Positions 36,660 to 64,000 are shown, numbered from the stretch's first letter. The stretch: 64,000 nucleotides of DNA from Candidatus Omnitrophota bacterium (GCA_016201795.1 JACQCF010000010.1:15095-79094); one strand, 5' to 3'. Made by a program: numbers and translations. The notes: generated by a model not told the origin, from the letters alone.

Positions 36660-36660
36660 A

Positions 36661-36870: not shown

Positions 36871-36882
36871 GGGAAAAATGTT

Positions 36883-37439: not shown

Positions 37440-37520
37440 AAAAATCGTTGCAATGACCTTGGGCTTTGTTATAATGACCAGCTACTAAAGGTGTATTTAT
37501 CCACAATTGTGAATAAACTG
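37440..37520. promoter_or_regulatory. dnaA promoter region with DnaA boxes (oriC-proximal)
   Basis: TTGCAA (37448-37453), a 16-nt spacer, then TATAAT (37470-37475). A perfect DnaA box TTATCCACA sits at 37497-37505 and an inverted near-box TGTGAATAA at 37510-37518. Confidence 0.6.
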
Positions 37521-37539
37521 TGTACTATTCTCGTCGAAA

Positions 37540-47113: not shown

Positions 47114-47118
47114 ATAAA

Positions 47119-47217
47119 TTCCCCTCCCCTTGTGGGAGGGGCTAGGGGAGGGGATACAGATGAGAATTATCCTCAGTGTTACCCCCACCCTAACCCTCCC
47201 CACAAAGGGGGAGGGAA
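47119..47217 (+). repeat. MITE-like G-rich palindromic element, copy A (GGGAGGGG family)
   Basis: Left end TTCCCCTCCCCTTGTGGGAGGGGCTAGGGGAGGGGA, a 25-nt spacer, then right end CCCCCACCCTAACCCTCCCCACAAAGGGGGAGGGAA. Each end is itself a hairpin and a G-quadruplex-type G-run array. It lies just 5' of mdh. Confidence 0.7.
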
Positions 47218-49259: not shown

Positions 49260-50099
49260 ATGGCTATGGAAAATAAAAAACAGATCTTTTTGATCATATT
49301 TGCGGTGGTCGCCGGTATTGCGGCGACGCTATTAACCAGCAATTATGTGATCAGAACAATAGAACAGAAGACGCAGGAACTTTCTGACCAGTATGACCAA
49401 AAGCAAAAACAGATGGCGGCGGAATTGCAGCAGCAAAGCCAGCAGCAGGTGGCTGCTTTGCGTGAGGAGATTGGCCGCATCAGCCAGCAGCAGCAGGAGA
49501 CTTTGCAAAAAGCCAACGCCGCGATGCAGGCTGGGCAGCAGGGCGCGGCCATGGGGAAGCAAAGAGCCAGACGCGCCACTACCCTGTTAACCATGAAAAC
49601 ACCTGCCGGCAAACGCGCGGTGACGGTGATGATTGATTCTTTAGCCGCGGTGGGCGGGCTTTTAAACCCGGGCGATTTCGTGGATGTGATGGCGCATTTG
49701 AACGTGCCTGAAGAAGCAAGCTCTGATAAGAAAAAGACTCTTACGGCGATGGTTTTTCAAGATTTGCAGGTGCTGGCGATCAACACTAATTTGGAGGATG
49801 CCGGGGCTTACGATGAGCAGCAGGCTGCGGGGTCTTTAAAGGTAACCTTTGCGGTGGACCCGCAAGAAGCGGGGCTTTTGGCTTTTGCCGATAAAAACGG
49901 CAAGCTGGAGCTGGCTCTGCGGGCTACCAATGAAAACGATAAACAGATGGTCAAGGCCTCCACCTGGAAGACGCTGGCGGATTATGTGCTGCAGAATCAG
50001 GGTTCCGCCATCGATGTCCCCGAAGAAGGAATGCCCAAAACCGGAACAAAAGAAGGAAAGCCCTACATTCAGATTTTTAGAGGAGGTAAGGAGCTCTAA
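49260..50099 (+). CDS. cpaB: Flp pilus assembly protein CpaB/RcpC with inserted Gln-rich coiled coil
   Basis: 279 aa with an N-terminal TM, a ~70-aa Q-rich segment, then the RcpC/CpaB C-domain (AVTVMIDSLAAVGGLLNPGDFVDVMAHL...LQVLAIN...VTFAVDPQEAGLLAFA). Confidence 0.75.
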   Translation: MAMENKKQIFLIIFAVVAGIAATLLTSNYVIRTIEQKTQELSDQYDQKQKQMAAELQQQSQQQVAALREEIGRISQQQQETLQKANAAMQAGQQGAAMGKQRARRATTLLTMKTPAGKRAVTVMIDSLAAVGGLLNPGDFVDVMAHLNVPEEASSDKKKTLTAMVFQDLQVLAINTNLEDAGAYDEQQAAGSLKVTFAVDPQEAGLLAFADKNGKLELALRATNENDKQMVKASTWKTLADYVLQNQGSAIDVPEEGMPKTGTKEGKPYIQIFRGGKEL

Positions 50100-50102
50100 T
50101 CC

Positions 50103-51878
50103 ATGAGAATATTTCTGTTAAAAATTTTAGTGGTGGGGGCCATGACAGCCTTTTTTGCCGGCACGGCCTCGTCGGATGAAGGGGATAATGCCCCCAAGGC
50201 CCCGGAGGTGATTGAACTTGTCACCGGGGATGTGCAGACGGTTGAAACTAAAAATTTAAGCAGGGTTTCGGTGGCCAACCCGGACGTTGCGGATATTTCC
50301 GATGCGCAGCCCAATAAAGTACTTGTCGTCGGCAAAAAGGCGGGACAGACGGAGGTGTCTATCTGGGATGACAACGGCAAGAAGAGCGTCATCGTGCGGG
50401 TGGCCGGCGAAAATCTTGACTCCCTTAAAACCCGCCTGGAGGCGATTATCAATAAAACCGGTATCAAAGGAATATCTCTGGATAAAAGTGCGTATGAAGG
50501 CAAAGTCGTTTTATCAGGCTCCGTTTATAAAGAGGACAAGGACGTTCTGGATAAAGTGACGGATCCTTTTAGCGACAGGATCATCAATTTAGTTAAAAAA
50601 GAAGTCAGTGAAGATTTGGTGCAGATTGATATGCAGGTCACCGAATTGAGCACGACATTAACCAAAAGTATTGGTATAGACTGGAACAGAGGGGGCGCCA
50701 GTGGCGCCACGACGGGTGCGACGGGCGTCAGTACTACTAGCGGTACGCCGTTTTTGAATTTGGATTACAAGGAAACATTACCGAGCACTAACGGTAAACC
50801 GGAAGATTTCTTTAAAATAGGTGATTTTAACCGTACCAGTTCGATTTTAGCCACCGTCAATGCCCTGCTGCAAGAAGGCAAAGGCCGTATTCTTTCCAAA
50901 CCGCGTCTGGTGGTTTTAAGCGGCAAGGAAGCCAGCTTCTTAGTCGGCGGTGAAATCCCTGTTGTCACGACAACGACCACTGGCGGCGGTGCCGGAACGA
51001 CAACGTCCAATGTGTCGTTTAAACAATACGGGGTGAATATGACGATCACCCCGACGGTGCGCGATGGCAAAATCGATATTCTGCTCAATGTACAAATCAG
51101 CGACATTGACCGCGCCAACAAGGTAGGCAATGATGTGGCTTTCATCACCCGTTCAGCGCAGACCCAATTATTTTTGGATAACAGTCAGACGATTGTGTTG
51201 GCGGGATTGATTAAACATGCCGACGGGCAAACCATCAAGGGGATTCCTTTTTTAAGTAAAATACCGGTGGTGGGGATGTTCTTTAGGACCCGTCAGAATG
51301 GAGCGCCTGATTCAGATACTGAGCTGGTGATTTCCTTAACACCGACGATCCTTAAATCCAAGAAGATGGCCACCGAGCAGGTGGTTTTGCCCACCAAACG
51401 CATGGATAGTTTCGCCAAGGAAATCGAAAGCAATTTTGAGAAAGAACCGCTTAATCCCCCCCTGGAGAAAAAGCTCCCCATGGCCCCGCCGGCCAAGGGC
51501 GCTTCCCAGCCGATGATGATAAAACCCATCTCCCAGGTGCCGGATATCATCGTGTCCTTGTATGTGCGTTCCATTCAGCTAAGAATTTCTCAGGCCGTTT
51601 CTTATCCGTATGAGGCCCTGCAGAAGAATTGGCAGGGCGCAGTGAAACTGCGGCTGCGTATTCTCAAAGACGGCACCCTGGCAGATGCGGATGTGCTGGA
51701 ATCTTCCGGCCATGATGTATTTGACAAAGACGCTCTTAATACCGCCAAAACCGCGGCTCCGTTCGCGCCGTTTCCCAAAGAGATGAAGGGGGAAGATATC
51801 GTGGTGACGGTCCCCATTGTTTATAACCAGCACACCGCTTCCCAAAATGATACACAAACCGTAGTCGCTGCTTACTAA
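50103..51878 (+). CDS. cpaC: Tad secretin CpaC/RcpA fused to a C-terminal TonB-C-like domain
   Basis: 591 aa with a signal peptide and a secretin core (...LSKPRLVVLSGKEASFLVGGEIPV...GIPFLSKIPVVGMFFR...). A linker is followed by a ~90-aa segment matching the TonB C-terminal domain pattern (YPYEALQKNWQGAVKLRLRILKDGTLADADVLESSGHDVFDKDALNTAKTAAPFAPFPKE). Confidence 0.8.
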   Translation: MRIFLLKILVVGAMTAFFAGTASSDEGDNAPKAPEVIELVTGDVQTVETKNLSRVSVANPDVADISDAQPNKVLVVGKKAGQTEVSIWDDNGKKSVIVRVAGENLDSLKTRLEAIINKTGIKGISLDKSAYEGKVVLSGSVYKEDKDVLDKVTDPFSDRIINLVKKEVSEDLVQIDMQVTELSTTLTKSIGIDWNRGGASGATTGATGVSTTSGTPFLNLDYKETLPSTNGKPEDFFKIGDFNRTSSILATVNALLQEGKGRILSKPRLVVLSGKEASFLVGGEIPVVTTTTTGGGAGTTTSNVSFKQYGVNMTITPTVRDGKIDILLNVQISDIDRANKVGNDVAFITRSAQTQLFLDNSQTIVLAGLIKHADGQTIKGIPFLSKIPVVGMFFRTRQNGAPDSDTELVISLTPTILKSKKMATEQVVLPTKRMDSFAKEIESNFEKEPLNPPLEKKLPMAPPAKGASQPMMIKPISQVPDIIVSLYVRSIQLRISQAVSYPYEALQKNWQGAVKLRLRILKDGTLADADVLESSGHDVFDKDALNTAKTAAPFAPFPKEMKGEDIVVTVPIVYNQHTASQNDTQTVVAAY

Positions 51879-51965
51879 ACACAATCCGAACTACGTTTTT
51901 TAATTGACAAACCACCAATCATGGACTATACTCCATATTAGTTGAACTATTGTGGATGTATAAAC

Positions 51966-53117
51966 ATGAACAAAAATATCCAAAGACTACTAAAGATAAA
52001 ACTCCCCAGGGGCCAATCCGCCTTTCTTTGGGGGCCCCGTAAAACGGGGAAATCCACATTTTTACGTCAACATTTCCCCAAGAGCATTATCTACGATTTT
52101 CTAAACACAGATTTATACGTTGATTTAGTTAAAAAGCCTTCTTTGCTTCGTCAGCATCTCTCAGCCCTCAAGGTCAAGGGGCCTGTTATTCTAGACGAAG
52201 TTCAAAAAATTCCGGCTATTTTGGATGAAGTCCACTGGATGATAGAAAACATGAAGTTATCTTTTATTCTATGCGGATCATCCGCCAGAAAATTAAAACG
52301 CGGTCAGGCCAATTTATTAGGGGGAAGGGCATGGCGGTTTGAAATGTTCCCGTTAGTTTACCCGGAAATAGAGAATTTCAACTTGTTGCACGCATTAAAC
52401 AACGGTTTATTGCCGGCGCATTATTTGCAAAAAGATGCCTCCAAATCCCTCGATGGCTATGTCAAAGATTATTTGAAAGAAGAAGTCTTTGAAGAAGGTC
52501 TCACGCGCAACATCCCGGCTTTTTCAAGATTTTTTGATTCCATGTCTTTCGATCATGGTCAAATGGTCAATTTTACAAACATAGCCAGGGATTGTTCTGT
52601 TGATGTTAAAACAGTCCAGCAATATTACCAGATCTTAGTGGATACGTTTTTGGGTTCATTTGTCGAACCTTATAAAAGAAAACAGGACCGGGCAATTATT
52701 TCACGAACACAAAAGTTTTATCTGTTTGACGTTGGAGTAGCAGGAGCAATAACCCGCAGACATATTGCCCAGGAAGCAGGAGAAGAATTTGGCAAAGCTT
52801 TTGAACATTTTATATTTACTCAGTTGGTAGCCTATAACAGTTATAAGCAGAAAAATATAAGAATCAATTATTGGCGTACTAAATCCGGATTAGAAGTGGA
52901 TTTTATACTAGGTAAGGGCGAGGTCGCTATAGAGGTCAAAGGAGCGAGCAGGGTCGATTTCACGGACATCAAAGGCTTGAGGGCTTTTTATGAAGAGCAT
53001 AGGCCTAAGAAGGCGATCGTTGTTACTAATGAAAGGGTTTCAAGAATTGAAAGGGGGATTCGTTTTTTGCCATGGGGGGAGTTCCTATCTTTGCTCTGGC
53101 GGGGAGATCTTATTTAG
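51966..53117 (+). CDS. AAA ATPase with DUF4143-type C-terminal domain
   Basis: MNKNIQRLL...GPRKTGKSTFLRQ (Walker A), ...ILDEVQ (Walker B). A strong sigma70-like promoter sits upstream: TTGACA (51905-51910), 16 nt, TATACT (51927-51932). The ORF track starts at TTG 51942. Confidence 0.7.
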   Translation: MNKNIQRLLKIKLPRGQSAFLWGPRKTGKSTFLRQHFPKSIIYDFLNTDLYVDLVKKPSLLRQHLSALKVKGPVILDEVQKIPAILDEVHWMIENMKLSFILCGSSARKLKRGQANLLGGRAWRFEMFPLVYPEIENFNLLHALNNGLLPAHYLQKDASKSLDGYVKDYLKEEVFEEGLTRNIPAFSRFFDSMSFDHGQMVNFTNIARDCSVDVKTVQQYYQILVDTFLGSFVEPYKRKQDRAIISRTQKFYLFDVGVAGAITRRHIAQEAGEEFGKAFEHFIFTQLVAYNSYKQKNIRINYWRTKSGLEVDFILGKGEVAIEVKGASRVDFTDIKGLRAFYEEHRPKKAIVVTNERVSRIERGIRFLPWGEFLSLLWRGDLI

Positions 53118-53220
53118 AACAAATTATAAAAGGACTTTAGCCAAGAGCTCATAAATTCAGGTAATGACAAAATAAAAAACCGTGGTACAATATCCCAATT
53201 GACCACGGTTTTTAGTTCCT

Positions 53221-55380
53221 ATGTCCTGCAAAATCATCACAATCTTCAGTAATAAAGGCGGGGTTGGCAAAACCTTCGTCGCTGTTAACACGGCCGCGGC
53301 GCTGGCGCTCAAAGGCAAAAAAGTTTTAGTGGTTGATTTTGACCTTCAGGCCGGCCAGAACATGGCCCGTATGTTCAATCTCACCCCTGCCCATTCTCTG
53401 GTGGACATCCTCTCGGCCATGGAAAGCGACGAGAAAAGCTATATCGTTAAGAAATTCGCCGCGCCTCATTCCAGCGGCCTGGACTTTTTACCGGCGGTCA
53501 ATCACGTCCGCCAGGGCGGCCATATTACTCCCGATAACATACGTCCCTTTTTCAAAAGAGCGGCAGCTCTTTATGATTATATCATCATTGACGCGGACAG
53601 ATCCTTTAGCGAGACGCTCATTAGCGTTTTGGATAACACCAATTTAATTTTATTGGTGACCACTCCCGATATTCTGGCGGTGTATCAGGCCAAAAGCGGC
53701 CTGGAGATTTTACAGAGCCTGCATTTTCCTTTAAAAATGTCCAAATTGATTTTGAACCGGGCCGAAAGCCGCGGCGGGGTGGCCTGGCAGGAAGTGCAGT
53801 CGGTTGTAGCCTGCGATATGTTCGCTCTTGTTCCTTCCGACGGGAAAACCGTTGGCCTGGCCTTAAACCGCGGTATTCCCTGCGTCATTGACAGTCCCCG
53901 GACGCGCGTTTCCGAGGTTTTCTTCGAATTGGCGGACAAACTGCAGGCGGAGGATATCTATGTGCATTCCTCCGACGTGGTTAAAGTGCGTACCGTGGAA
54001 GGCCTGAGCTCCAAAGGCAATGAATTTTGGGAAAAATTCGGCATTGCGCCCGGAGGGTCCTCACCGATGGAGGTGACCTATAAGAAGGAAGAAGACGAGG
54101 TCATTAAATTAAAAAAAGTCATTCACCAGAAGCTGGTGGAGCGCATGAACCTTAAAAAGATCTCCCCACAAGTCTTCACCGATACGCAACAGGCGGCCAA
54201 TATGCGCAAAGCCGCGGAAAAGTTGGTCACGGAACTTTTGGCCGAAACCTCGGGAACCATTATTGCTTCCCACGAGGAACGCTCCCGGCTGGTGCGCGAA
54301 ATTGTCAATGAAGCGCTGGGCTTAGGTCCGCTGGAAGATCTGTTGGTGGATGAGGATATTTCCGATATCATGGTCAACAACAAAGACGAAATTTTCATCG
54401 AGAAAAACGGTAAAATCATTTTGACCAACAAGCGTTTTATTTCCAATGAACAGGTGCGCGCCACCATTGACCGCATCATCGCCCCTTTGGGGCGCCGCGT
54501 GGACGAATCGACCCCGATGGTGGATGCCCGCCTGCCCGACGGCTCGCGTATTAACGCCATTATCCCGCCGCTGGCCTTAAACGGTCCGATGATTACCATC
54601 CGCAAATTCTCTCAGGAGCGTTACACCATGGAGGATTTGCTCACTAAATTCAAAAGTATTTCCCAGCCCATGGCGGACTTTTTAGACGCCTGCGTGATTG
54701 GTCGCAAGAATATGATCATCTCCGGCGGGACCGGCGCAGGCAAGACCACGCTTTTAAATATTGTGTCACATTTTATCCCCGACAATGAACGCATCATCAC
54801 CATTGAGGATGCGGCGGAGCTGCGTTTGAGCAAAGTGCATTGGGCCCGCCTGGAATCGCGCCCGTCTAACGTGGAAGGCAAGGGCCATATTGCCATTCGG
54901 GATCTTTTTATCAACACGCTGCGTATGCGCCCGGATCGTATCATCATCGGCGAGTGCCGCGGCCCGGAAGTTTTGGATATGATGCAGGCGATGAACACCG
55001 GCCACGACGGCTCGCTGACCACCTTGCACGCCAACACCACCCGGGACGTCCTGGCGCGTTTATCGTCGATGGTTTTGCTCTCCGGCATTGAGCTTCCCAT
55101 CCGTGCTATTTATGAAATGGTGGCCTCCTCCATCAATATCATCGTGCAAATTTCCAGGTTTTCCGACGGTTCGCGCAAAATTACGGCCATTTCCGAGCTC
55201 ACCGGCAAAATGGTCGAGGGCCTGCCAGAGATGAAAGATGTTTTTGTCTTCAAGCACAGGGGCATCAATACCGAGGGGGTTGTTTTAGGAGAGTACGTGG
55301 CCACTGGCTTTGTGCCCAAATGCTACGACGATTTTATGACGCGGGGAATTCCGCTCAGCAAAACGATTTTTAATCCGTGA
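53221..55380 (+). CDS. TadZ/CpaE-like MinD-family ATPase fused to TadA/CpaF secretion ATPase
   Basis: 719 aa. The N-terminal ~270 aa is a ParA/MinD-type P-loop (SNKGGVGKTFVAVNTAAALA). The C-terminal ~400 aa is a CpaF/TadA type II/IV secretion NTPase (GGTGAGKTTLLN Walker A, IIIGECRGPE, GHDGSLTTLHAN). Confidence 0.8.
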   Translation: MSCKIITIFSNKGGVGKTFVAVNTAAALALKGKKVLVVDFDLQAGQNMARMFNLTPAHSLVDILSAMESDEKSYIVKKFAAPHSSGLDFLPAVNHVRQGGHITPDNIRPFFKRAAALYDYIIIDADRSFSETLISVLDNTNLILLVTTPDILAVYQAKSGLEILQSLHFPLKMSKLILNRAESRGGVAWQEVQSVVACDMFALVPSDGKTVGLALNRGIPCVIDSPRTRVSEVFFELADKLQAEDIYVHSSDVVKVRTVEGLSSKGNEFWEKFGIAPGGSSPMEVTYKKEEDEVIKLKKVIHQKLVERMNLKKISPQVFTDTQQAANMRKAAEKLVTELLAETSGTIIASHEERSRLVREIVNEALGLGPLEDLLVDEDISDIMVNNKDEIFIEKNGKIILTNKRFISNEQVRATIDRIIAPLGRRVDESTPMVDARLPDGSRINAIIPPLALNGPMITIRKFSQERYTMEDLLTKFKSISQPMADFLDACVIGRKNMIISGGTGAGKTTLLNIVSHFIPDNERIITIEDAAELRLSKVHWARLESRPSNVEGKGHIAIRDLFINTLRMRPDRIIIGECRGPEVLDMMQAMNTGHDGSLTTLHANTTRDVLARLSSMVLLSGIELPIRAIYEMVASSINIIVQISRFSDGSRKITAISELTGKMVEGLPEMKDVFVFKHRGINTEGVVLGEYVATGFVPKCYDDFMTRGIPLSKTIFNP

Positions 55381-55715
55381 TCAAAAATCTTACCCGACAG
55401 ACCATTCTGGCGACCTGCGTCGAAATCGCTCATACGCCTTTGAAACGGATGCGGGGTCTGGTCGGCCGTTTGTTCCTCAAACCAACCGAGGCTTTGGTCA
55501 TTGCCCCTTGCCAGAGCATTCATATGCTGTTTATGAAATTTCCCATCGACGTCATTTTTCTCGACGATAAAAATAAAGTCATAGGCCAAAGGGCGCGCAT
55601 CAAGCCTTTTCAATTCTCGGCGATTTTTTGGAAATCTGCTTGCGCCATCGAATTGCCGGCTGGTACAATTGAGCTAACCCATACACAACTTGGCGATCAA
55701 ATACAAATTTCTTAA
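55377..55715 (+). CDS. DUF192 domain protein
   Basis: 112 aa ...MRGLVGR...LVIAPCQSIHMLFMKFPIDVIFLD... has a DUF192/COG1430-like pattern. Confidence 0.55.
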   Translation: MIKNLTRQTILATCVEIAHTPLKRMRGLVGRLFLKPTEALVIAPCQSIHMLFMKFPIDVIFLDDKNKVIGQRARIKPFQFSAIFWKSACAIELPAGTIELTHTQLGDQIQIS

Positions 55716-55768
55716 TGCTAGATTATTGCTGCCTGAAAAATGCTATAATTGGAATGGAGGTGAATCCT

Positions 55769-55972
55769 ATGAAAACACAAGCTCATGAACCAATCACCAT
55801 TGATGAACCCATGGTTTTGGTTCCAGCCGAAGAGTATGATTTATTGATTAAAGAGGCCGGTTATAGACCGACCCCCCATCTCAGTCGGCAAATCAAGAAA
55901 GCTAAAGAGAATTTCCGTAAGGGAAAGTCTTTACCGTGGAGAAAAGTAAGGGATGAGCTCTTATCACGTTGA
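55769..55972 (+). CDS. Type II antitoxin (Phd/RelB-like)
   Basis: 67 aa MKTQAHEPITIDEPMVLVPAEEYDLLIKEAGY..., preceded by TATAAT (55744-55749) and GGAGG. Overlaps the downstream toxin gene. Confidence 0.6.
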   Translation: MKTQAHEPITIDEPMVLVPAEEYDLLIKEAGYRPTPHLSRQIKKAKENFRKGKSLPWRKVRDELLSR

Positions 55973-56216
55973 TATTGACCCTGCCGCTCGTCGTGACCTT
56001 AAGAAATTCAAACGCAATTTTTCTTTATTGCGAATCTTTATTTCCTTGATTGATGGTCTTGCAACATCTCCTTTTGAAGGCAAGCCATTGGCAGGCGATA
56101 AGAAGGGATGCTATTCCCTGCGGCATCAGGATTATCGGATTATTTACACCATTTATCCCGAGTCTAAAACAGTGCTTGTTATCAGTATTGGTCATCGTTG
56201 GGAAGTTTATCGTTAA
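55953..56216 (+). CDS. Type II toxin RelE/ParE family
   Basis: 87 aa ...YSLRHQDYRIIYTIYPESKTVLVISIGHR. Confidence 0.75.
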   Translation: MSSYHVDIDPAARRDLKKFKRNFSLLRIFISLIDGLATSPFEGKPLAGDKKGCYSLRHQDYRIIYTIYPESKTVLVISIGHRWEVYR

Positions 56217-56224
56217 GGTATGCC

Positions 56225-57700
56225 ATGGGAGTCGTCTACAAACTAACTCCGGAGATCAGCTCCTTTATCATCGAGCAAAAAAAGAGCAACCCGCAATTGA
56301 CCTGTCAACACTTAGCGGGGCTGGTGCTGTCGCGTTTTGGCCAGCCGCTTTCCAAATCCTCGGTGCATGAGCTTTTAAAACAGTCGCATACCATCACCCC
56401 CCGCCTGCACAAGCTTAAGAATAAATTTCAAATTCCGCCGCAGAAAAAGGCGCAGATTTTTCCGACAATCCTGGCGATGCCTGCCTCGCCGGCAGGCGGG
56501 CCTGCGCCAGATCCCCCACCGGCTCCCACCATTGAGCCTGTAGCCATGCAACAAGTTCCTCTGCAGAAACCGCCTCAACCGCTCACGCAGGGCCAAGTCC
56601 AACAACGCATGGGCGAGATTTTCCTCAAGGCCGCCTTCTGGGATCTGTCCTTTAAGCCCATTTTGGGCTTAAAGGATTTTGATGATATTAATGGTTCGAC
56701 GGGCTCACCATTAGATAAAAATAGTTTAAGATTAGAATGGGAATCCTTAACCAAGCCAGTTGAGGCGATCAAAGTAGAGTTAGAAGACAGCCATTGTTTT
56801 TACATCGACTGCCGCTTTCAAGGTTTATACGCGGATAATCCTCAAAAGGAATTTTTGGCCGCGCCTCTTGAGCGTTCTGCCGGGGAAATGCCGGATTACG
56901 TGCTTAATAATATTCAACCTTTGATCATTAGGGAATTTAATACAACTGATTCAATTACAACAGTTTATGATCTCATAGCGGCTTTTGAGAACTTACCGGG
57001 TAAGGCTATTACTAAAATTTCCCTTATAGGAGCTCAAAATCAAATTTTAACTGAATTTAGCTTGCCTCGCCGGCAGGCGGGCCTGCCTGTCGGTTTGCCT
57101 TTGGCTTATAAACGTCATTTTATCTTGGGAATATCTTCTAACTGTGAGGAATTTCAATGGGTTATGAAAGACCAAAAGCCGGAAAATCCCTGGCTAACGC
57201 CCCTCAAAGACAAAAAAGGTCAACCAATTGCCCTAAGAATCCTTAAAAAAGGTGGTAATATTATCATAACTAATTTATTATCATATAGTTATGATAATAT
57301 TATAAAGCTCTATCTGAACCGGCATCCTCAAAGCTTGTCATTCCCGAATGTTTCTATCGGGAATCTAGTAGTTGCCAATACTGGATCCCCGACTAAAACT
57401 TTCGGGGATGACACACTGACTAACCAATCCCAATGGCTCAAAAACCGTCTCAAGGAGCGCGCTCTGATGCTTTTCCCGTTGGATTTACCCCCGGCGGCCT
57501 TAGAGGAGATTTTAGCCCTGCCAGGCTTTGAGGCGTCTCATGAAAAAATGCTTCAGGTACACTTGAATGTGCCGGATCAGTTTCCCTATATTCAAAGTGT
57601 GCAGGCCGCCGCCGCATGCGTGAATAGTTTAGATATTACAGACCCCAAGGGCCGGAAAATCGATGTTCAAGTGGATGTTACGCATGTAGAGAGATTTTGA
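56225..57700 (+). CDS. Hypothetical protein with N-terminal HTH-like region, Pro-rich linker and internal 28-bp direct repeat
   Basis: ~490 aa with no TM. N-terminus ...ISSFIIEQKKSNPQLTCQHLAGLVLSRFGQPLSKSSVHELLKQ, then a P/A/Q-rich linker. The DNA repeat gcCTGCCTCGCCGGCAGGCGGGCCTGC occurs at 56476-56503 and 57061-57088. Confidence 0.5.
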   Translation: MGVVYKLTPEISSFIIEQKKSNPQLTCQHLAGLVLSRFGQPLSKSSVHELLKQSHTITPRLHKLKNKFQIPPQKKAQIFPTILAMPASPAGGPAPDPPPAPTIEPVAMQQVPLQKPPQPLTQGQVQQRMGEIFLKAAFWDLSFKPILGLKDFDDINGSTGSPLDKNSLRLEWESLTKPVEAIKVELEDSHCFYIDCRFQGLYADNPQKEFLAAPLERSAGEMPDYVLNNIQPLIIREFNTTDSITTVYDLIAAFENLPGKAITKISLIGAQNQILTEFSLPRRQAGLPVGLPLAYKRHFILGISSNCEEFQWVMKDQKPENPWLTPLKDKKGQPIALRILKKGGNIIITNLLSYSYDNIIKLYLNRHPQSLSFPNVSIGNLVVANTGSPTKTFGDDTLTNQSQWLKNRLKERALMLFPLDLPPAALEEILALPGFEASHEKMLQVHLNVPDQFPYIQSVQAAAACVNSLDITDPKGRKIDVQVDVTHVERF

Positions 57701-57706
57701 TACGAT

Positions 57707-57804
57707 TTCCCCTCCCCTGGTGGGAGGGGTAAGGGGAGGGGGATCGACGGAGATCATCGTTTTTATGCCCCCGCCCTAACCCTCCCCACAAAGGGGGAGG
57801 GAAT
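57707..57804 (+). repeat. MITE-like G-rich palindromic element, copy B
   Basis: TTTCCCCTCCCCTGGTGGGAGGGGTAAGGGGAGGGGGA...GCCCCCGCCCTAACCCTCCCCACAAAGGGGGAGGGAAT, lying 160 bp upstream of the first flp gene. Confidence 0.7.
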
Positions 57805-57964
57805 CCAAATTTTTATACAGGCGAGGTTGACATCGGGTATTTTATATGGCATACTTTATTTACGATAATGAGATGGATGTCAAAGACGTATTTAAAGTCT
57901 CCGAAAGAGACTTTTATTATAGACGGGCATAATCGTCTTCACGAAACAACCATAGGTGAACCCA

Positions 57965-58120
57965 ATGGGTCGCTTCAAAAATGTAAAAGCTCAAAACTTA
58001 ATCGAATACGCGATCGTGTTGGGTTTAGTCTCGGCAGCCATCGCTGCCATGAGCACCTATGTGTTTCGTTCAATACAGGCCGCCCAGAAGACGGTTGATC
58101 AGGAATTCGGCGCACAATAA
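57965..58120 (+). CDS. flp: Flp-family type IVb pilin (canonical short form, 51 aa)
   Basis: Absent from the ORF track because it is under 60 aa. MGRFKNVKAQNLIEYAIVLGLVSAAIAAMSTYVFRSIQAAQKTVDQEFGAQ has the Flp processing motif (xxxxEY) followed by a hydrophobic helix. Confidence 0.7.
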   Translation: MGRFKNVKAQNLIEYAIVLGLVSAAIAAMSTYVFRSIQAAQKTVDQEFGAQ

Positions 58121-58146
58121 CGTTCTTACAACAGGAGACATAATCT

Positions 58147-58428
58147 ATGTTTAGAAATATAAATGGTTCGAAGGGCTCGCCACGAGATAAACTCGGGCAG
58201 AGCACCGTAGAGTACATCATTCTGGTAACCGCTGTGATTGCGGTGGTGATTCTGTTTGTCGCCAATCCAGGTACCGGATTTCAAAAGAAGGTTAACAGCA
58301 CGTTGGAGACAGCAACTCAAGGGATGGAGGATAAAGGGGCTTTTTTGAGTACTTCGCATAATACAGCCCCTGGGAATTCCGACTTGCCGCAGATAAACGT
58401 TGACATAACGAGCAATCTGCTACCTTAG
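58147..58428 (+). CDS. Flp-type pilin paralogue with C-terminal extension
   Basis: 93 aa; leader ...KLG/QSTVEYIILVTAVIAVVILFV. Confidence 0.7.
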   Translation: MFRNINGSKGSPRDKLGQSTVEYIILVTAVIAVVILFVANPGTGFQKKVNSTLETATQGMEDKGAFLSTSHNTAPGNSDLPQINVDITSNLLP

Positions 58429-58479
58429 TTACTTTAAGAAAAGTTCCTTAATAACCTTAAGGAAAATTTAGGAGGATAT

Positions 58480-58842
58480 ATGTTAAGACAGTTATTCAAA
58501 AATAAAAACGGACAGAACACCGCCGAATACGCGTTGTTGATTGCCCTGGTTGTTGCAGGCATTGTGGCCATGCAAACCTATGCCCAGCGGTCCTTACAGG
58601 CGCGGGTGCGCGATGCTTCGCAGTATTTGACAACCACGACCAACACCATAGGTAATTCGGTGCAGTATGAGCCTTATTATTTGCAAACCAATTACGAGGT
58701 CACACGTGACAGCGGCAGTAATCAAAGGTTGAGCAAAGGCACCACAGCCGCGGATTCTTTCACCAATCGCGAACGTGCGAAAGGCGGCTCTCAAGTGTCG
58801 ACGTATAATACGTCTGTAAATGGTTTGACTAATGGACTTTAA
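58480..58842 (+). CDS. Flp-type pilin paralogue, extended (QYEPYY subgroup)
   Basis: 120 aa; MLRQLFKNKNG/QNTAEYALLIALVVAGIVA..., with the QYEPYY motif shared with the 59560 paralogue. Confidence 0.7.
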   Translation: MLRQLFKNKNGQNTAEYALLIALVVAGIVAMQTYAQRSLQARVRDASQYLTTTTNTIGNSVQYEPYYLQTNYEVTRDSGSNQRLSKGTTAADSFTNRERAKGGSQVSTYNTSVNGLTNGL

Positions 58843-58898
58843 GCTAAACACAACCCTGTGCCCTGGAGGGTACAGGATGATCATTTAAGGAGGAAGGT

Positions 58899-59231
58899 AT
58901 GATTGCTTATCTTAATCGTCACAGAGGACAAAGCACGCTCGAATATGCGGTGCTGATTATCATCATCATCGCGGCTTTGCTCTCCATTCAGATTTATATC
59001 AAACGCGGCGTGCAGGGCCGTTTAAAGAGCTCCGCCGATGATATCGGTGATCAGTTCTCGCCGGGCAATACCAATGTTCTTAAGGCGGAGAAGACCAAAA
59101 CTGTAGAAAGCCAACAGTTTGGTATCACCGGTCAAGGCGTGCAAAACAGCACCTTGCTTAATAAGGAAACAACTAACTCGGCCACACAATCGGTTGTTGT
59201 CAACAATGATCAGGAATACTGGGGACAATAA
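58899..59231 (+). CDS. Flp-type pilin paralogue, extended (IKRGxQGR subgroup)
   Basis: 110 aa; ...HRG/QSTLEYAVLIIIIIAALLSIQIYIKRGVQGRLKSSADDIGDQF. Confidence 0.7.
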   Translation: MIAYLNRHRGQSTLEYAVLIIIIIAALLSIQIYIKRGVQGRLKSSADDIGDQFSPGNTNVLKAEKTKTVESQQFGITGQGVQNSTLLNKETTNSATQSVVVNNDQEYWGQ

Positions 59232-59240
59232 CCAGTTCTT

Positions 59241-59342
59241 AGTAAATAGTAAATAGTAGATAGTAGATAGTTAATGGTGAGTGATTTTGGGACATGGTTC
59301 CTGAGGTCCTCACCATTTACTATTTACTATTCACCATTAACG
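59241..59342. repeat. Large palindromic element with tandem TAAATAG/TAGATAG heptads between pilin genes
   Basis: aGTAAATAGTAAATAGTAGATAGTAGATAGTTAATGGTGAGtgattttgggacatggttcctgaggtcCTCACCATTTACTATTTACTATTCACCATTAAC forms a ~40-bp imperfect stem. Confidence 0.65.
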
Positions 59343-59346
59343 GACC

Positions 59347-59547
59347 ATGAGGATTAGTATGAGTAAGAAAGGCCAGAGCACCATAGAGTACATTTTGTTG
59401 GTGACCGCGGTGGTGGCAGTGGTGATTTTTTTGACAACCGGACAGAATTCCATGTTTCAGCAAAGACTGGCCAATACCATTAATATCACCACCAACGGCA
59501 TGGAAACCATGGCCAATCGTCTCACCAATTCGGCGGTCGTGCCGTAA
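59347..59547 (+). CDS. Flp-type pilin paralogue
   Basis: 66 aa MRISMSKKG/QSTIEYILLVTAVVAVVIFL. Confidence 0.7.
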   Translation: MRISMSKKGQSTIEYILLVTAVVAVVIFLTTGQNSMFQQRLANTINITTNGMETMANRLTNSAVVP

Positions 59548-59559
59548 GGATGAAGGACT

Positions 59560-59982
59560 ATGGTCAAAGGACGCCGCCAGCAGGGGGTAACTTCTTTAGC
59601 CGAATACACCATGACGTTTTTTTTGGTGATCGCCGTGGTGGTGGCCATGACCACTTATATTCAGCGTTCCCTGCAGGCGCGTATACGCGATGCACGTCAT
59701 TACATGATTGCCGCCGTCAGCAATCAATGCGATGCCAATTGTATGAATGCCACAGGGTTAGCGGGCAGTAACACCATAGGAGAACAGTACGAGCCGTATT
59801 ATGCGGCAGTGAATGCGACGGTGAGTGCGGATAGCCTGGTTCGAAAAGGGCTTTTAGCACCAGGCGTTGGCAGTACGGGAATTTTTAGGGCGCAGACCAA
59901 CGAACAGAATCAAAGCGCCTCTGACAGCAACCAACTGCCGCCGGTCAATGCAGCGAATGATAAAGTATTGGGGGCGCAGTAA
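59560..59982 (+). CDS. Flp-type pilin paralogue, extended (QYEPYY subgroup)
   Basis: 140 aa MVKGRRQQG/VTSLAEYTMTFFLVIAVVVAM...GEQYEPYYAAVN. Confidence 0.65.
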   Translation: MVKGRRQQGVTSLAEYTMTFFLVIAVVVAMTTYIQRSLQARIRDARHYMIAAVSNQCDANCMNATGLAGSNTIGEQYEPYYAAVNATVSADSLVRKGLLAPGVGSTGIFRAQTNEQNQSASDSNQLPPVNAANDKVLGAQ

Positions 59983-60426
59983 ATGGTGAATAATAAACGT
60001 AGCAGAGTTTCCCCTCCCCTTGTGGGAGGGGTAAGGGGAGGGGAATTAAAAAGGCGCATCGTCTTGTTTCCCCCCACCCTGGCCCTCCCCACAAGGGGGA
60101 GGGAAAAAGAAGGCCAAACCGTTTTAGAGTACATTTTATTAATCGGCATTGTGACGATAGCGCTGGTGTACATGGGCACGGATATCAAGCGCGGTATCCA
60201 AAGCGTGATTAAAGTGACGGCTGATCAAATAGGCAATCAACAGCAGTCGGAGCAGGATTTTAGCGCCACTGGCGGATATCTGGTTAATTCAGCAAGTTCC
60301 GTCAAAGACATTAGCCACAGATCCGTGCAGGAAAGAATCGGCGTGGTGACAACGGCGAGCGATGATTTTATGCAGACGACGACCAACAGTCTGACCAATG
60401 CGGGCTTTACGCCGACGGGGAATTAA
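59983..60426 (+). CDS. Flp-type pilin paralogue with MITE copy C inserted in-frame in its leader peptide
   Basis: 147 aa. MVNNKRSRV is followed by 33 element-encoded codons, then KEG/QTVLEYILLIGIVTIALV. No alternative in-frame ATG, GTG or TTG start exists downstream of the element. Confidence 0.55.
   Translation: MVNNKRSRVSPPLVGGVRGGELKRRIVLFPPTLALPTRGREKEGQTVLEYILLIGIVTIALVYMGTDIKRGIQSVIKVTADQIGNQQQSEQDFSATGGYLVNSASSVKDISHRSVQERIGVVTTASDDFMQTTTNSLTNAGFTPTGN
60009..60105 (+). repeat. MITE-like G-rich palindromic element, copy C (inside the pilin ORF, ~99 bp)
   Basis: TTTCCCCTCCCCTTGTGGGAGGGGTAAGGGGAGGGGAATT...CCCCCCACCCTGGCCCTCCCCACAAGGGGGAGGGAAA. Confidence 0.7.
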
Positions 60427-60431
60427 GTAAA

Positions 60432-60585
60432 TTCCCCTCCCCTGGTGGGAGGGGTAAGGGGAGGGGAGATTGAAGATTTTAAGGTTTTGGAATCATGATG
60501 TGCCCAGGAATCGGGATGGGGTTTTACAAAAGATAGTTGATCGTTTGATTTCCCCCTCCCTAACCCTCCCCACAAGGGGGAGGGA
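60432..60585 (+). repeat. MITE-like G-rich palindromic element, copy D (long-spacer variant)
   Basis: Left end 60432-60468 and right end 60550-60585, with a ~85-nt spacer. The right end AGGGGGAGGGAAGG supplies an SD-like sequence 8 nt before the GTG at 60596. Confidence 0.7.
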
Positions 60586-60595
60586 AGGCCTGTTG

Positions 60596-60916
60596 GTGCG
60601 AGGCGTTAAAGGCCAGAGTTTTTTGGAATATTCCGTGCTGCTCATTATCATTCTGGCCGTATTTTTATCCATGCAGATGTACATCAAACGCGGCATTCAG
60701 GGCCGCTGGAAATCAGCGGTGGATGAATTCGGTGATCAATACGATCCGCGGGTGGCCAATTCCGCGGCCAGTTACACGTTACTGAGCAATTCCAGTACAC
60801 AGGTGACGGTTATTCCCGAAGCTAACGGCCAGGTGACCATGAGGCAGGACAGCACCAATGCGGTGGAGACCAAAGCGGGCAGCACCACGGTGGGGTCGGT
60901 TTCGGCTCAACCGTAA
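60596..60916 (+). CDS. Flp-type pilin paralogue (IKRGxQGR subgroup), probable GTG start
   Basis: VRGVKG/QSFLEYSVLLIIILAVFLSMQMYIKRGIQGRWKSAVDEFGDQY. The ORF track starts at TTG 60470, inside the repeat. Confidence 0.6.
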   Translation: MRGVKGQSFLEYSVLLIIILAVFLSMQMYIKRGIQGRWKSAVDEFGDQYDPRVANSAASYTLLSNSSTQVTVIPEANGQVTMRQDSTNAVETKAGSTTVGSVSAQP

Positions 60917-60921
60917 ATGGT

Positions 60922-60968
60922 GTCATTGCTTCGTCGTCCCGCCTTGGCGGGACTCCTCGCAATGACAC
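60922..60968. repeat. Palindromic repeat (GTCATTGC...GCAATGAC), short copy 5' of the large TadE-like gene
   Basis: GTCATTGCttcgtcGTCCCGCCttgGCGGGACtcctcGCAATGAC is a nested hairpin. The 60927-61006 stretch is duplicated at 63401-63480. Confidence 0.65.
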
Positions 60969-60977
60969 TTAATAGAT

Positions 60978-62651
60978 ATGAACAAACATAAAAAAGGCCA
61001 GGCGATAGTGGAAGCAGCCATCTTCGGCGCCATTTTGATTTTCTTAATGGGCACTATTCTGCGCACGCATGTCAGCGTCAGTCAAAATCAGAACCATCAG
61101 ATCAAGGCCCTGAAATTGGCGCTCTTGCAAAGCTTCAAGGGTTACAACCACAAGACCAGTTCCCGCAATTCCTCCAGCGTGCTTTTTGTGGAAGACCGCC
61201 TCTCACCGGATGTTAACAAATTCGCCGCCATTGACAGGTCGCCGTTTATTGCCGGCGGCTCAGGCACCATGAGCAACCGCCTGTTTTATCCGGTTGATGC
61301 CGGCGAGATCGGCAGCAATCTGCCGATCACCGACATTTTTATCAACGGCCAGCATTTTCCTTTGACCACCGCTTCTTTAGTGTTCAGGCGTATTTACCAG
61401 CCCGCGCCTGGGGTTTACCCATCCGTGCCCGGGGAAACTTGCCCGTTAGACACTAATGACCCCGAGCACTATAATTGCCTGCAGCAGCAGAACGAATATC
61501 TGACTCCTGCCACTTGCCCTACTCCTCCCTGCTCTCCTTATCCGCTTTTTTTTACCATGGCGGTCAACGGAACAGTGCAATATTGTTATAACACCACTCA
61601 GCTTACTGCAACATGCCACAACAATGTTTTGAATCAATTACAAAGTTTTCACCTGACGCGTCAATGGAGCGGTCCTAGCTTGTCCTTTACTCCTAACAAG
61701 GAAGTAGACTCCTCGATGTACCCTTATATGACCTGGCAATGGCAGGCGGTTAAGGGCACGGGCGATAATGTCAATATTGTCAAGCAAAACCAGGATGGCA
61801 GCGCCCCCAACACCGACAACAACGGTAAAATCAATGTCGACAAAACCAATGACGCGTATCCCTCTTTGGATGTGGATGGAGACAAAAAAGAAGAAACCGT
61901 CTACGCGGTCACGTGTCAATCCTCCAATAGTTTACAAAGTACTATTGATGGGGTGGATGATCAATATAAGATCAACGGAAAGATTTTATTGTTAGACAAC
62001 GGGACTGTTCTTGGCAACTCTGGCCTTCTGGCAAAATTGGGTTTTGACTGTTCTAGTTCAACAACGTGTATCAAGACGGATGGGTCCAATCAATCCCTGG
62101 AGTGCGATCCGAACGCATCTACGTTTTTAAAGTGTAAGTTTAAAGCCGACAGCAGCATTAGCGGTTGCACGAACAATGCACCCATCACAGGAGTCATCGC
62201 TTTGGATACCCAGCTGGGGGACATTGACCAAACCTTTGATAGTTCTTCTCATGGGCCCACACCCGGGCTTCAAGGGAATATGGGAATATACACCGAAGTC
62301 AGGCCGGGGACTTTTTTGCAAATCAAAGAAGGGAAGCTCTACAACCCCGAGACCCACCAGATGGTGCGAAGCATCAGCAGTAAAGACAGTGTGGATTTTA
62401 TCTCACGGACGTTTCAGTTAAGCAACGACACCAGACGCTTTTGCCCCGCAGTCGGAACTACTCCTGAGCTCACTGTAGACGGAGAGTCTAATCCCGTGCA
62501 GGTATGTGTCGATGGGACCACGACTACTTGTTTCGATGACAATTCCAGAAAGACCTGTTTTGACCGGGTTAACCGCATCCTTTATATTCGCACCAATGTG
62601 GGGGACAATCGGACCAGGAAATGGTTTACGGATGTAACTAAAGGACTATGA
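60978..62651 (+). CDS. TadE-like pseudopilin with large Cys-rich C-terminal domain (putative tip or adhesin subunit)
   Basis: 557 aa; N-terminus MNKHKKG/QAIVEAAIFGAILIFLMG is TadE-like. It is followed by ~500 aa rich in Cys, Asn, Thr and Asp (TCPTPPCSPYP, CQSSNSL, FDCSSSTTCIK). Confidence 0.65.
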   Translation: MNKHKKGQAIVEAAIFGAILIFLMGTILRTHVSVSQNQNHQIKALKLALLQSFKGYNHKTSSRNSSSVLFVEDRLSPDVNKFAAIDRSPFIAGGSGTMSNRLFYPVDAGEIGSNLPITDIFINGQHFPLTTASLVFRRIYQPAPGVYPSVPGETCPLDTNDPEHYNCLQQQNEYLTPATCPTPPCSPYPLFFTMAVNGTVQYCYNTTQLTATCHNNVLNQLQSFHLTRQWSGPSLSFTPNKEVDSSMYPYMTWQWQAVKGTGDNVNIVKQNQDGSAPNTDNNGKINVDKTNDAYPSLDVDGDKKEETVYAVTCQSSNSLQSTIDGVDDQYKINGKILLLDNGTVLGNSGLLAKLGFDCSSSTTCIKTDGSNQSLECDPNASTFLKCKFKADSSISGCTNNAPITGVIALDTQLGDIDQTFDSSSHGPTPGLQGNMGIYTEVRPGTFLQIKEGKLYNPETHQMVRSISSKDSVDFISRTFQLSNDTRRFCPAVGTTPELTVDGESNPVQVCVDGTTTTCFDDNSRKTCFDRVNRILYIRTNVGDNRTRKWFTDVTKGL

Positions 62652-62698
62652 AAACGTAAGAAGTAAATGGTTAATGGTACATGGTTAATGGTTAGAAA

Positions 62699-63049
62699 AT
62701 GTTTAAATTTGAAACATTGGATATTTGGAAGGAATCAGTAAAGTTTGCAGATGAAATTTATCAAGTAGTCAGGAACAGTTCAGATTATAGTTTAAATGAC
62801 CAAATTAAAAGGGCGGCAAATTCGATAGCTTTAAACATAGCTGAGGGTACAGGACGCGGTTCGAAAAATGATTTTAAAAGATTTATTCAGATTTCTATAG
62901 GGTCGCTGTATGAAGTAGTAACATGTTTATACATAATGAAAAATCATAAGGATATTACACAAGAGGCTTTCACAAGACTATATGAAAGATCGCAACAGTT
63001 GTCAAAGATGTTGCATGGTTTTATGAGTTATTTAGAGAAAGAACAGTAA
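62699..63049 (+). CDS. Four-helix-bundle protein (TIGR02436-like, 'S23 intervening-sequence protein' family)
   Basis: 116 aa MFKFETLDIWKESVKFADEIYQVV...RAANSIALNIAEGTGRGSKNDFKRFIQISIGSLYEV is the family signature. Confidence 0.7.
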   Translation: MFKFETLDIWKESVKFADEIYQVVRNSSDYSLNDQIKRAANSIALNIAEGTGRGSKNDFKRFIQISIGSLYEVVTCLYIMKNHKDITQEAFTRLYERSQQLSKMLHGFMSYLEKEQ

Positions 63050-63051
63050 CC

Positions 63052-63333
63052 ATGAACCATTTACCATTAACTATTAACCGTAGACGGCCTCGAAGAGGCC
63101 AGTCTACCATTGAATTTACTTTTGCCGTAGTAATGGTGGCCCTTTTGATTTTCGGGCTGATCAAGATTTTTCAGTGGGTGGGAATGAATTTTGCCCAGCG
63201 CTCTTGGGACTTGGACAATGCCCAGTTTGTAAAGCCGCCTATGGACAGCAGCTTTGTTGCCAACGAAGAGGCACAGCTGAACCATGATGCGTATAGGACC
63301 AAACGCCTTAATGCGTTTACGAGGAATTTTTGA
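63052..63333 (+). CDS. Flp/TadE-like pseudopilin
   Basis: 93 aa MNHLPLTINRRRPRRG/QSTIEFTFAVVMVALLIFGLI. Confidence 0.6.
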   Translation: MNHLPLTINRRRPRRGQSTIEFTFAVVMVALLIFGLIKIFQWVGMNFAQRSWDLDNAQFVKPPMDSSFVANEEAQLNHDAYRTKRLNAFTRNF

Positions 63334-63347
63334 ACGGTAAAGGAGGC

Positions 63348-63442
63348 GTCATTGCGAAGAAGCGAAGCGACTGAAGCAATCTTTTTCAATGCTAACAAGA
63401 TTGCTTCGTCGTCCCGCCTTGGCGGGACTCCTCGCAATGACA
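63348..63442. repeat. Palindromic repeat (GTCATTGCGAAG...CTCGCAATGAC), full copy 5' of the TadG-like gene
   Basis: gtcattgcgaagaagcgaagcgactgaagcaatc-tttttcaatgctaacaa-gattgcttcgtcgtcccgccttggcgggactcctcgcaatgacac. Confidence 0.65.
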
Positions 63443-63452
63443 CTTAATAGAT

Positions 63453-64000
63453 ATGAACAAACATAAAAAAGGCCAGGCCGCTTTGATCATGATCCTTGTT
63501 GCGGCCACGGCTCTTACCTTTTACGCCATTACCCTTAACTGGAGCCGTGTAGCGGATGTAAAAATCCATCATTGGATGGCCGCGACCAATGCCTCCACTC
63601 AATCGGCCTCACTGCTGGCTAGCTGGGGGGAAAGGACATTGTGGGAGGAGCTCATTCCCCTGGGAGACCCTCTCGATTACAATTCGGGGGTAATAGAGCA
63701 TGTAGAAAAAACATGGCTTTTTATCAAAATCCTTGTGATCATTATTGTGGTGATCATAACGATTTTTACTCTTGGTGCTACAGCCGCCTTGCTAGTTCTT
63801 GTTATAATGTTGGTTGCTTTAACTCTTGAATATGCGGTGATCACGCCGATGCAATTTGACATATGGAATAAACTGGAAAAAAATATGGCAGAGGAGCTGG
63901 ACCAATTCCGGGAAGAGGGGATAAGGACAGGCTTACAAGCTGCAGTCAATGATCCTGTAAACCTTCCGGACCGTTTTGACATGAACAGCAATGGCAAATT
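63453..64000 (+). CDS. TadE/TadG-like pseudopilin, 5' partial (continues beyond the window)
   Basis: MNKHKKG/QAALIMILVAATALTFYAIT... shares its first 8 codons and 5' UTR with the 60978 gene. A second hydrophobic segment LFIKILVIIIVVIITIFTLG follows. Confidence 0.55.
   Translation, partial: MNKHKKGQAALIMILVAATALTFYAITLNWSRVADVKIHHWMAATNASTQSASLLASWGERTLWEELIPLGDPLDYNSGVIEHVEKTWLFIKILVIIIVVIITIFTLGATAALLVLVIMLVALTLEYAVITPMQFDIWNKLEKNMAEELDQFREEGIRTGLQAAVNDPVNLPDRFDMNSNGK

Follow-up and report, generated by a model that had tools for sequence, protein, structure and literature searches.

Is the pilus-like gene cluster at the end of a 64,000-nucleotide stretch from a Candidatus Omnitrophota bacterium (GCA_016201795.1, JACQCF010000010.1:15095-79094; this whole stretch is hereafter called the window) a divergent machine put together by horizontal shuffling, or the local copy of a system that its relatives share? 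The former had been suggested in an earlier note made from the sequence alone, which read positions 49260 to 64000 as an atypical Tad/Flp pilus locus with rearranged genes and domain fusions. Our comparison of this locus with related genomes favors the latter. Very probably, the region represents the proximal 15 kb of an operon for a Tad-like system (type IVc filament), one that is conserved throughout the phylum and located near the replication origin. The cluster is already known as a system, and the window provides one more orthologue of it with a few strain-specific insertions.

Gene content and order across Omnitrophota

Every gene between 48277 and 64000 is encoded on the + strand. Those that make up the conserved cluster are given here with their best supporting matches; in the motifs, a bar marks the cleavage site.

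48277-49245, +, lipoprotein peptidyl-prolyl isomerase (PPIase; SurA_N + Rotamase_2) that opens the conserved cluster (Pfam Rotamase_2 5.5e-15, SurA_N_3)
49260-50099, +, RcpC/CpaB periplasmic alignment protein (PF16976 3e-25; TIGR03177 CpaB 97.4 bits, cutoff 71)
50103-51878, +, RcpA-type secretin with a TonB_C tail (T2SS-T3SS_pil_N, Secretin 2e-41, TonB_C 7e-18)
53221-55380, +, TadZ::TadA (CpaE::CpaF) fusion of 719 aa (ParA/MinD-type aa 3-240; T2SSE aa 366-645, 5.9e-59)
55377-55715, +, DUF192 protein (PF02643 7.5e-18)
56225-57700, +, conserved helix-turn-helix (HTH) protein of 491 aa, without any family in the profile search
57965-60916, +, eight Flp-type prepilin genes (leader, G/A|Q-x-x-x-E-Y, hydrophobic helix)
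60978-62651, +, pseudopilin of 557 aa (TadE/F-like N-terminus KKG|QAIVEA and a transmembrane (TM) segment, followed by a large domain)
63052-63333, +, small TadE-like pseudopilin of 93 aa (RRG|QSTIEF motif; weak TadE match, E=0.02)
63453-64000, +, N-terminal 182 aa of a TadG-like pseudopilin, whose open frame runs past the window end

Profile searches and motifs confirmed the gene content that the earlier note had described (cpaB, a secretin with a TonB-C tail, a TadZ-TadA fusion, a toxin-antitoxin pair, DUF192, a protein of ~500 aa, eight flp genes and TadE/G-like genes). All the genes that it named are present; a DUF4143 gene, an IVP gene and the PPIase that opens the cluster at 48277 had been missed, and DUF192 actually precedes the toxin-antitoxin pair instead of following it.

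The evolution of this arrangement was studied using the relatives of the TadZ::TadA fusion, which served as the query in a scan with a single genome for each GTDB species. The scan provided 570 confirmed relatives. The best 80 of these 570 come from Omnitrophota metagenome-assembled genomes, a minority of which are labelled as uncultured Planctomycetales/Planctomycetia (binchicken bins) or plain 'bacterium'. Genes were counted in these 80 loci by tblastn with the window proteins, requiring the same strand and the same order, and the denominators are 64 loci with upstream sequence, 49 with downstream sequence and 80 for the fusion. The order gyrA-GST-nitrilase-mdh-PPIase-RcpC-secretin(TonB_C)-TadZA-DUF192-HTH-pilins-pseudopilins, where GST stands for glutathione S-transferase, is shared by 63-64 of the 64 Omnitrophota loci. 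The PPIase lies upstream in 63 of them, while RcpC and the secretin were recovered in all 64, the secretin alignment always reaching the TonB_C tail. The fusion spans both of its domains as a single high-scoring segment pair in 76/80 loci. Downstream, DUF192 was found in 45/49 loci, the HTH protein in 37/49 and the pilin paralogues in 40-45/49. The conservation includes the housekeeping genes ahead of the cluster (gyrA, GST, nitrilase (CN_hydrolase) and mdh): these flanks and the core order are identical in relatives whose ATPases range from 84% to ~50% identity. The nearest relatives on long contigs, L091 (ATPase 84% identical) and L090 (80%), agree gene for gene with the window, their order being gyrA-GST-CN_hydrolase-mdh-PPIase-RcpC-secretin(TonB_C)-fusion-DUF192-HTH, then 8 to 10 small genes and the pseudopilins. 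Their 3' part encodes proteins of ~550 aa, ~80 aa, 969/1314 aa and 140/165 aa, and then a T2SSF protein.

The platform genes and the prepilin peptidase are not part of the window. No T2SSF (TadB/TadC) or Peptidase_A24 gene was detected within it, tblastn with the TadB/TadC of relatives gave no match there and the GxGDxK motif is absent from all six of its frames; its open reading frames (ORFs) with multiple TM segments correspond to FTR1, HlyIII, VTT and YidC, without any A24 match. These motif, profile and tblastn searches bear out the earlier observation that the window lacks tadV, tadB and tadC. The note had also supposed that they may lie beyond the window end, and tadB does occupy the equivalent position in all four relatives examined, with tadC after it in L084, L081 and L086. 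In relatives with ATPases 65-84% identical to that of the window, the TadG-like gene is followed by a Flp-like gene of 111-165 aa and then by tadB. In L081, L084 and L086, two proteins of ~290 aa with one T2SSF domain each (TadB + TadC) are encoded 5-10 kb downstream of the ATPase; the L090 and L091 sequences end inside the first T2SSF gene. In total, tblastn found TadB in 19 sources and TadC in 13, always downstream and on the same strand; three of the sources (L027, L081 and L086) are one and the same genome. By analogy of position, the tadB/tadC genes of the window genome should start ~4 kb past the window end. What comes next varies among the relatives: in the L081 genome, tadC is followed by a 748-aa gene and then by a 7,270-aa ORF that opens with Peptidase_C39; in a second contig (P0002), the operon is followed by a 16,764-aa ORF, likewise with Peptidase_C39 at its start; in L084, there is no giant gene after tadC.

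Components of the machine

When the fusion ATPase is compared with solved structures, its residues 310-703 match Caulobacter CpaF (E=4.5e-113), and a Walker A (GGTGAGKTT) and a His box (TGHDGSLTTLHAN) can be read directly in this motor half. The N-domain, which a linker connects to the CpaF-type hexameric motor ATPase, has a canonical Walker A (KGGVGKT) and no receiver domain. An NCBI protein that is 100% identical to the fusion is named TadA. The first 360 residues of the fusion were searched against 1.8 billion representative proteins. Fusions ranked first and were followed by ~100 proteins with lengths of 380-430 aa, whose matching ATPase domain begins around residue 140. Six of these ~400-aa proteins were scanned: Response_reg scored above the Pfam cut-off in four and below it in a fifth (23.7 vs 30.2 bits), and the sixth (P0183) had none. 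Judging from these matches, the closest standalone relatives of the N-domain have the receiver+ParA architecture of CpaE/TadZ. Since the N-domain is 33-36% identical to the Response_reg+ParA proteins vs 23% to the genome's own ParA, it is a TadZ-type ATPase that lost its receiver-like domain. The KGGVGKT motif is kept in the window fusion and its relatives. Two distant fusions (P0169 and P0184; N-domain identity 28-31%) carry KGGVGQT, in which the P-loop Lys is replaced by Gln.

The secretin is made up of a signal peptide, a pil_N domain, the secretin domain, a Pro-rich linker and TonB_C (aa 499-575, nt ~51597-51827). Among solved structures it matches a Tad secretin, RcpA (8odn, 2.5e-22), and its tail matches TonB (6sly/5lw8). 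A literature search on RcpA and TonB returned nothing relevant to such a tail on a secretin; the 2026 Omnitrophota preprint recorded isolated "TonB C-terminal domain" flanks near giant genes and did not relate them to the secretin. With neither TadD nor RcpB present, it is probably the TonB_C arm that anchors or pilots the secretin. Of the two proteins encoded ahead of the secretin, the periplasmic PPIase carries a lipobox (VSGC) in its N-terminus, and RcpC/CpaB starts with a TM helix and contains a coiled region rich in Gln.

Two further conserved proteins are encoded between the ATPase and the pilins. The DUF192 protein, encoded directly after the ATPase gene, has no signal peptide, and nothing relevant was found in the literature on DUF192 and pili. 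The 491-aa protein, annotated by NCBI as "helix-turn-helix domain-containing protein", begins with a homeodomain-like HTH, which a variable Pro-rich linker connects to a C-domain of the alpha/beta type. It is probably a DNA-binding regulator of the cluster, and of the pilin genes in particular.

The eight prepilin genes form an array.

58147-58428, 58480-58842 and 58899-59231, +, pil1, pil2 and pil3
59347-59547, 59560-59982 and 59983-60426, +, pil4, pil5 and pil6
57965-58120, +, pil0 (51 aa, of classical Flp size; below the default ORF cutoff and found by hand)
~60593-60916, +, pil7 (real start probably TTG/GTG at 60593/60596)

They share a pattern in which a short and basic leader precedes G/A|Q-x-x-x-E-Y and a hydrophobic helix of 18 residues comes after it. 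The E at +5 and the Y at +6 after the G/A are found in 7/8 prepilins, pil5 being shifted by one residue. All eight have 1:1 best matches in L090 with their order kept, and L091 contains an extra tandem copy of the pil1-3 block. Since the orthologues are 1:1 and ordered, the paralogues must be old and their order maintained.

Two of the three pseudopilins are very large. The 557-aa protein has orthologues at the same position in relatives, and a metagenome scan with its alignment led to L084. Its large domain contains 16 Cys and has no match among families or solved structures; a single-sequence AlphaFold2 model was unusable (predicted local distance difference test score of 37). It is a candidate tip or adhesin subunit. 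The small TadE-like pseudopilin also has orthologues in relatives. The orthologues of the TadG-like protein measure 770-1314 aa, and a metagenome scan with its 182-aa N-terminus found nothing. A perfect 79-nt direct repeat is located at 60925-61003 and 63400-63478. A hairpin (TCGTCCCGCC-TTGG-CGGGACTCCTCG) falls within it, as do codons one to nine (MNKHKKGQA) of the 557-aa and TadG-like genes, and its copies bracket the 557-aa, IVP and TadE-like genes. In the one relative compared (L005), the starts of the two orthologues are not identical. The repeat could reflect a recent gene conversion, or an assembly hazard.

Genome-specific insertions and the origin region

Only the DUF4143 gene, the ParE pair, the IVP gene and some repetitive extragenic palindrome (REP)-like elements are specific to this genome. 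They are intergenic or located in leader regions, and all the core ORFs are intact.

51942-53117, +, AAA_14 + DUF4143 ATPase between the secretin and the fusion (Pfam 2.3e-31 / 4.6e-18)
55769-56216, +, toxin-antitoxin pair: ParE_toxin (55953-56216, 3.4e-12) and a 67-aa putative antitoxin ORF (55769-55972)
62699-63049, +, 23S_rRNA_IVP four-helix-bundle gene (PF05635 3.7e-32)
47108-47210, 57696-57803, 59998-60105 and 60421-60580, +, four ~100-nt G/C-rich palindromic REP-like copies with core TTCCCCTCCCCTKGTGGGAGGGG

The DUF4143 gene is absent from 64/64 related loci, where the median spacer between secretin and ATPase is 27.5 nt. A near-consensus promoter-like site (51904-51932) stands ahead of it. 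In two relatives (L005, 8824-9897; L014, 8902-9909), the same spacer hosts a different protein of ~340 aa with an N-terminal signal-like sequence; the secretin/ATPase junction is therefore a variable and recurrent insertion site. The ParE pair is absent from 49/49 loci. Its upstream 67/85-aa ORF overlaps the ParE gene by 20 nt and has no family match, so that the antitoxin label comes from its position only. The IVP gene is likewise absent from 49/49 loci. The junction of the ParE pair is present in an independent read assembly (L089) and the IVP gene in two others (L082 and L083); since independent assemblies confirm these junctions, the insertions are real and strain-specific. As the IVP family includes Avd, a diversity-generating retroelement was considered; it was rejected on the grounds that there is no reverse transcriptase nearby and that the gene is absent in relatives.

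The REP-like element has no copy in the first 47 kb of the window and three copies inside the pilin array, and its copies lengthen the 5' ends of the mdh, pil6 and pil7 ORFs. Within the pil6 leader, the copy at 59998-60105 adds precisely 36 codons that keep the frame and contain no stop. The pil6 ATG directly follows the pil5 stop, and the insert separates this ATG from the G|QTVLEY cleavage site, giving a leader of 44 aa vs 5 aa in relatives. As the leader is cleaved off, pil6 may tolerate this insertion. Upstream of pil7, a remnant of a DUF559 endonuclease C-terminus (WNHDVPRNRDGVLQKIVDRL, 60470-60550) is fused in frame to the REP-like element.

The cluster begins ~11 kb after dnaA. Around the origin, parB, parA and yidC are on the - strand and dnaA, dnaN, gyrB and gyrA on the + strand, and the GC skew changes sign at ~36-37 kb of the window. 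The chromosomal origin region lies at ~36660-37540, between yidC (-) and dnaA (+), and nearly all the genes on either side are co-oriented with replication. The same co-orientation around the origin was noted in complete Omnitrophota genomes (West-Roberts 2023, bioRxiv 10.1101/2023.11.21.568195). On the other replichore, a stand-alone PilZ-domain protein is encoded at 18573-19019 (-; 1.2e-13); PilZ genes have been reported downstream of giant genes (West-Roberts 2023). Two Rfam matches were also recorded on the - strand: a cspA thermoregulator (14989-15373; 80.6 bits, just over the cutoff of 78) and a 6S RNA (21981-22131; 71.9 bits, above the gathering score). A promoter/terminator scan returned 31 sites of each kind vs ~22±5 in shuffles, that is ~1.8 standard deviations above, and was not counted as evidence.

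Relation to known machines and competing interpretations

Tad complexes have been described across Omnitrophota (Seymour et al. 2023, PMC10066038). The Tad locus of V. archaeovorus LiM (CP019384.1, 12382-29832) is expressed in co-culture with Methanosaeta (Seymour 2023), and a position ~11-12 kb from dnaA is common to that locus and the window. A secretion locus of >10 genes, found phylum-wide upstream of giant genes, was called type II secretion system (T2SS)-like and lists gspD, gspE, gspF, rcpC, a Rotamase_2 PPIase and many small genes with class III signal peptides (West-Roberts 2023). The window contains the Rotamase_2 PPIase, rcpC, gspD, gspE and class III signal peptide genes of this set; phylum and components are the same, and gspF-like genes are found downstream in relatives. 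The window differs from the published locus by three extra inserted genes and the REP-like elements. The searched texts of Seymour and West-Roberts make no mention of a secretin tail with TonB_C, of an Omnitrophota protein with the ParA::T2SSE fusion, of DUF192 or the HTH protein, or of eight pilins in fixed order. Apart from the ParA::T2SSE fusion, these are minor details for which no description was found in the literature searched.

The window shares with the canonical Tad/Cpa systems (A. actinomycetemcomitans, Caulobacter cpaA-F) a CpaF-type motor, a TadZ-type domain, RcpC/CpaB, an RcpA secretin with pil_N, the Flp G|xxxxEY motif and TadE/F/G-like pseudopilins, and the Omnitrophota relatives add the paired half-size platform proteins. 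The order and the domain fusions are nonetheless unlike the canonical flp-tadV-rcpCAB-tadZABCDEFG, as the earlier note had recognized: the Omnitrophota order is rcpC-rcpA-tadZA-...-flp x8-tadE/F/G-flp-tadB-tadC. Contrary to canonical Tad, the Omnitrophota TadZ lacks the receiver-like N-domain and is fused to TadA, the window cluster has no tadV, tadD or rcpB, and the secretin bears a TonB_C arm. The pilins are eight and longer (42-131 aa when mature), and the pseudopilins reach 557 aa and ~1000 aa or more. Parallels are also found in predators, as far as published descriptions can be compared. Bdellovibrio bacteriovorus has a TadZ-linker-TadA hybrid that binds the polarity hub RomR, and its tad loci lack TadV, Flp1 being cleaved by PilD (bioRxiv 10.64898/2026.07.08.737194). 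Its Tad locus 1 thus resembles the Omnitrophota cluster in the TadZA fusion, the lack of TadV and a predatory/host-dependent lifestyle, whereas the Bdellovibrio tad genes are scattered over several loci, with tadC apart, and the Omnitrophota genes form one long operon. Kil of Myxococcus xanthus is similarly a Tad-derived machine in a predator, a Tad-like apparatus for contact-dependent prey killing that assembles at prey contact sites (PMC8460266).

Several scenarios may explain these data. One possibility is that the cluster is a T2SS-like secretion machine, in which a short pseudopilus piston, and not an adhesive pilus, exports or surface-deploys the adjacent giant protein along with glycoside hydrolases. 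The published T2SS-like label and the position upstream of giant genes throughout the phylum would be congruent with this scenario, as would the relatives in which the operon leads straight into the 7,270-aa or 16,764-aa ORF, the secretion/pilus flanks at 13/14 giant genes (2026 Omnitrophota preprint) and the many pseudopilin-like genes, two of them very large. Yet the ATPase that matches CpaF so well only reaches 38 bits with GspE TIGR02533, the cutoff of which is 630. The pilin motif is of the Flp type, not G|FTLxE; the platform of the relatives consists of two single-T2SSF proteins, as TadB/TadC, not of a single full-length GspF; RcpC is present and no GspC/L/M was matched. Moreover, L084 has no giant gene after tadC, and a secretin is unlikely to take as substrates giant proteins that measure 7,000-85,000 aa and contain many TM segments. 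Such a secretion machine is therefore improbable. A distinct Tad sub-class dedicated to the deployment of giant surface proteins would be a contact-dependent attack organelle, made up of the TonB-like arms borne by every secretin subunit, the fused ATPase, DUF192, the HTH protein, the eight pilins and the ~550/~1000-aa pseudopilins, in which TonB_C would dock a beta-strand 'box' of a partner (the giant protein, RcpC or a pseudopilin). We regard this as a speculative option that is rather unlikely to be correct.

The other alternative is the one that prompted our question, namely a divergent Tad-like cluster built by horizontal transfer and shuffling and specific to this genome. The gene order unlike that of canonical tad loci may suggest it, as may the DUF4143 ATPase, the ParE pair and the IVP gene (of mobile or selfish type) and the REP-like elements within the cluster. 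In addition, the Omnitrophota TadB/C group with Bdellovibrionales and the Velamenicoccia RcpA with predatory myxobacteria and Lysobacter (Seymour 2023, PMC10066038), affinities that make ancient transfers into the phylum possible. Nevertheless, the phylum-wide synteny, which includes the housekeeping neighbours, contradicts the horizontally shuffled origin, and the GC content across the cluster is ordinary, without anomaly. The insertions are intergenic additions absent in all relatives, not rearrangements. The comparison of gene order, which the earlier note had itself named beforehand as a refuting test, shows that related genomes share this exact architecture, already published (bioRxiv 10.1101/2023.11.21.568195; PMC10066038). 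The arrangement is standard across Omnitrophota and vertically inherited, and a shuffled, genome-specific origin is hardly credible.

Some observations weigh against a conserved Tad-like operon. A prepilin peptidase was found neither in the window nor among the genes called in L081, L090 and L091; MacSyFinder treats tadV as a possible loner gene, and therefore its absence from the locus does not exclude Tad membership. In profile searches, the prepilins only score 14-15 bits with Flp_Fap (cutoff 32), and Class_IIIsignal exceeds its cutoff in pil4 only (26.5 vs 23.7). The 36 codons that a REP-like element added to the pil6 leader may impair this protein. In the window genome, TadB, TadC and any giant gene would lie beyond the window; what the TonB_C arm, DUF192 and the HTH protein do is inferred, and the literature searched contains no visualisation of a pilus in any Omnitrophota.

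If the Tad-like operon is modelled on the Tad/Cpa systems, TadZA hexamers would dock on the TadB/TadC platform, and the Flp subunits would be polymerised after cleavage by a peptidase whose gene lies elsewhere, in the manner of PilD in Bdellovibrio. The filament would pass through the RcpC ring and the secretin, with the large pseudopilins priming it or forming its tip. It would mediate attachment to host or prey cells and might possibly also display the neighbouring giant surface protein.

The bacteria of the phylum Omnitrophota are ultra-small, have not been cultivated and are thought to live as predators or parasites. Their main candidate for contact with a host is the Tad-like cluster, which in many of the genomes directly precedes the genes for the largest proteins known. 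The window adds no new kind of system; it offers an example in which the initial 15 kb of the operon are cleanly and fully resolved, and in which the core genes can be told apart from the strain-specific insertions. It also points to leads that are not discussed in the literature searched, such as the TonB_C arm of the secretin and, with a parallel in Bdellovibrio, the fusion of a receiver-less TadZ to TadA. Further leads are the DUF192/HTH partners, the eight pilin paralogues in fixed order and the location of the cluster beside oriC. All of them are testable in the V. archaeovorus enrichment culture.

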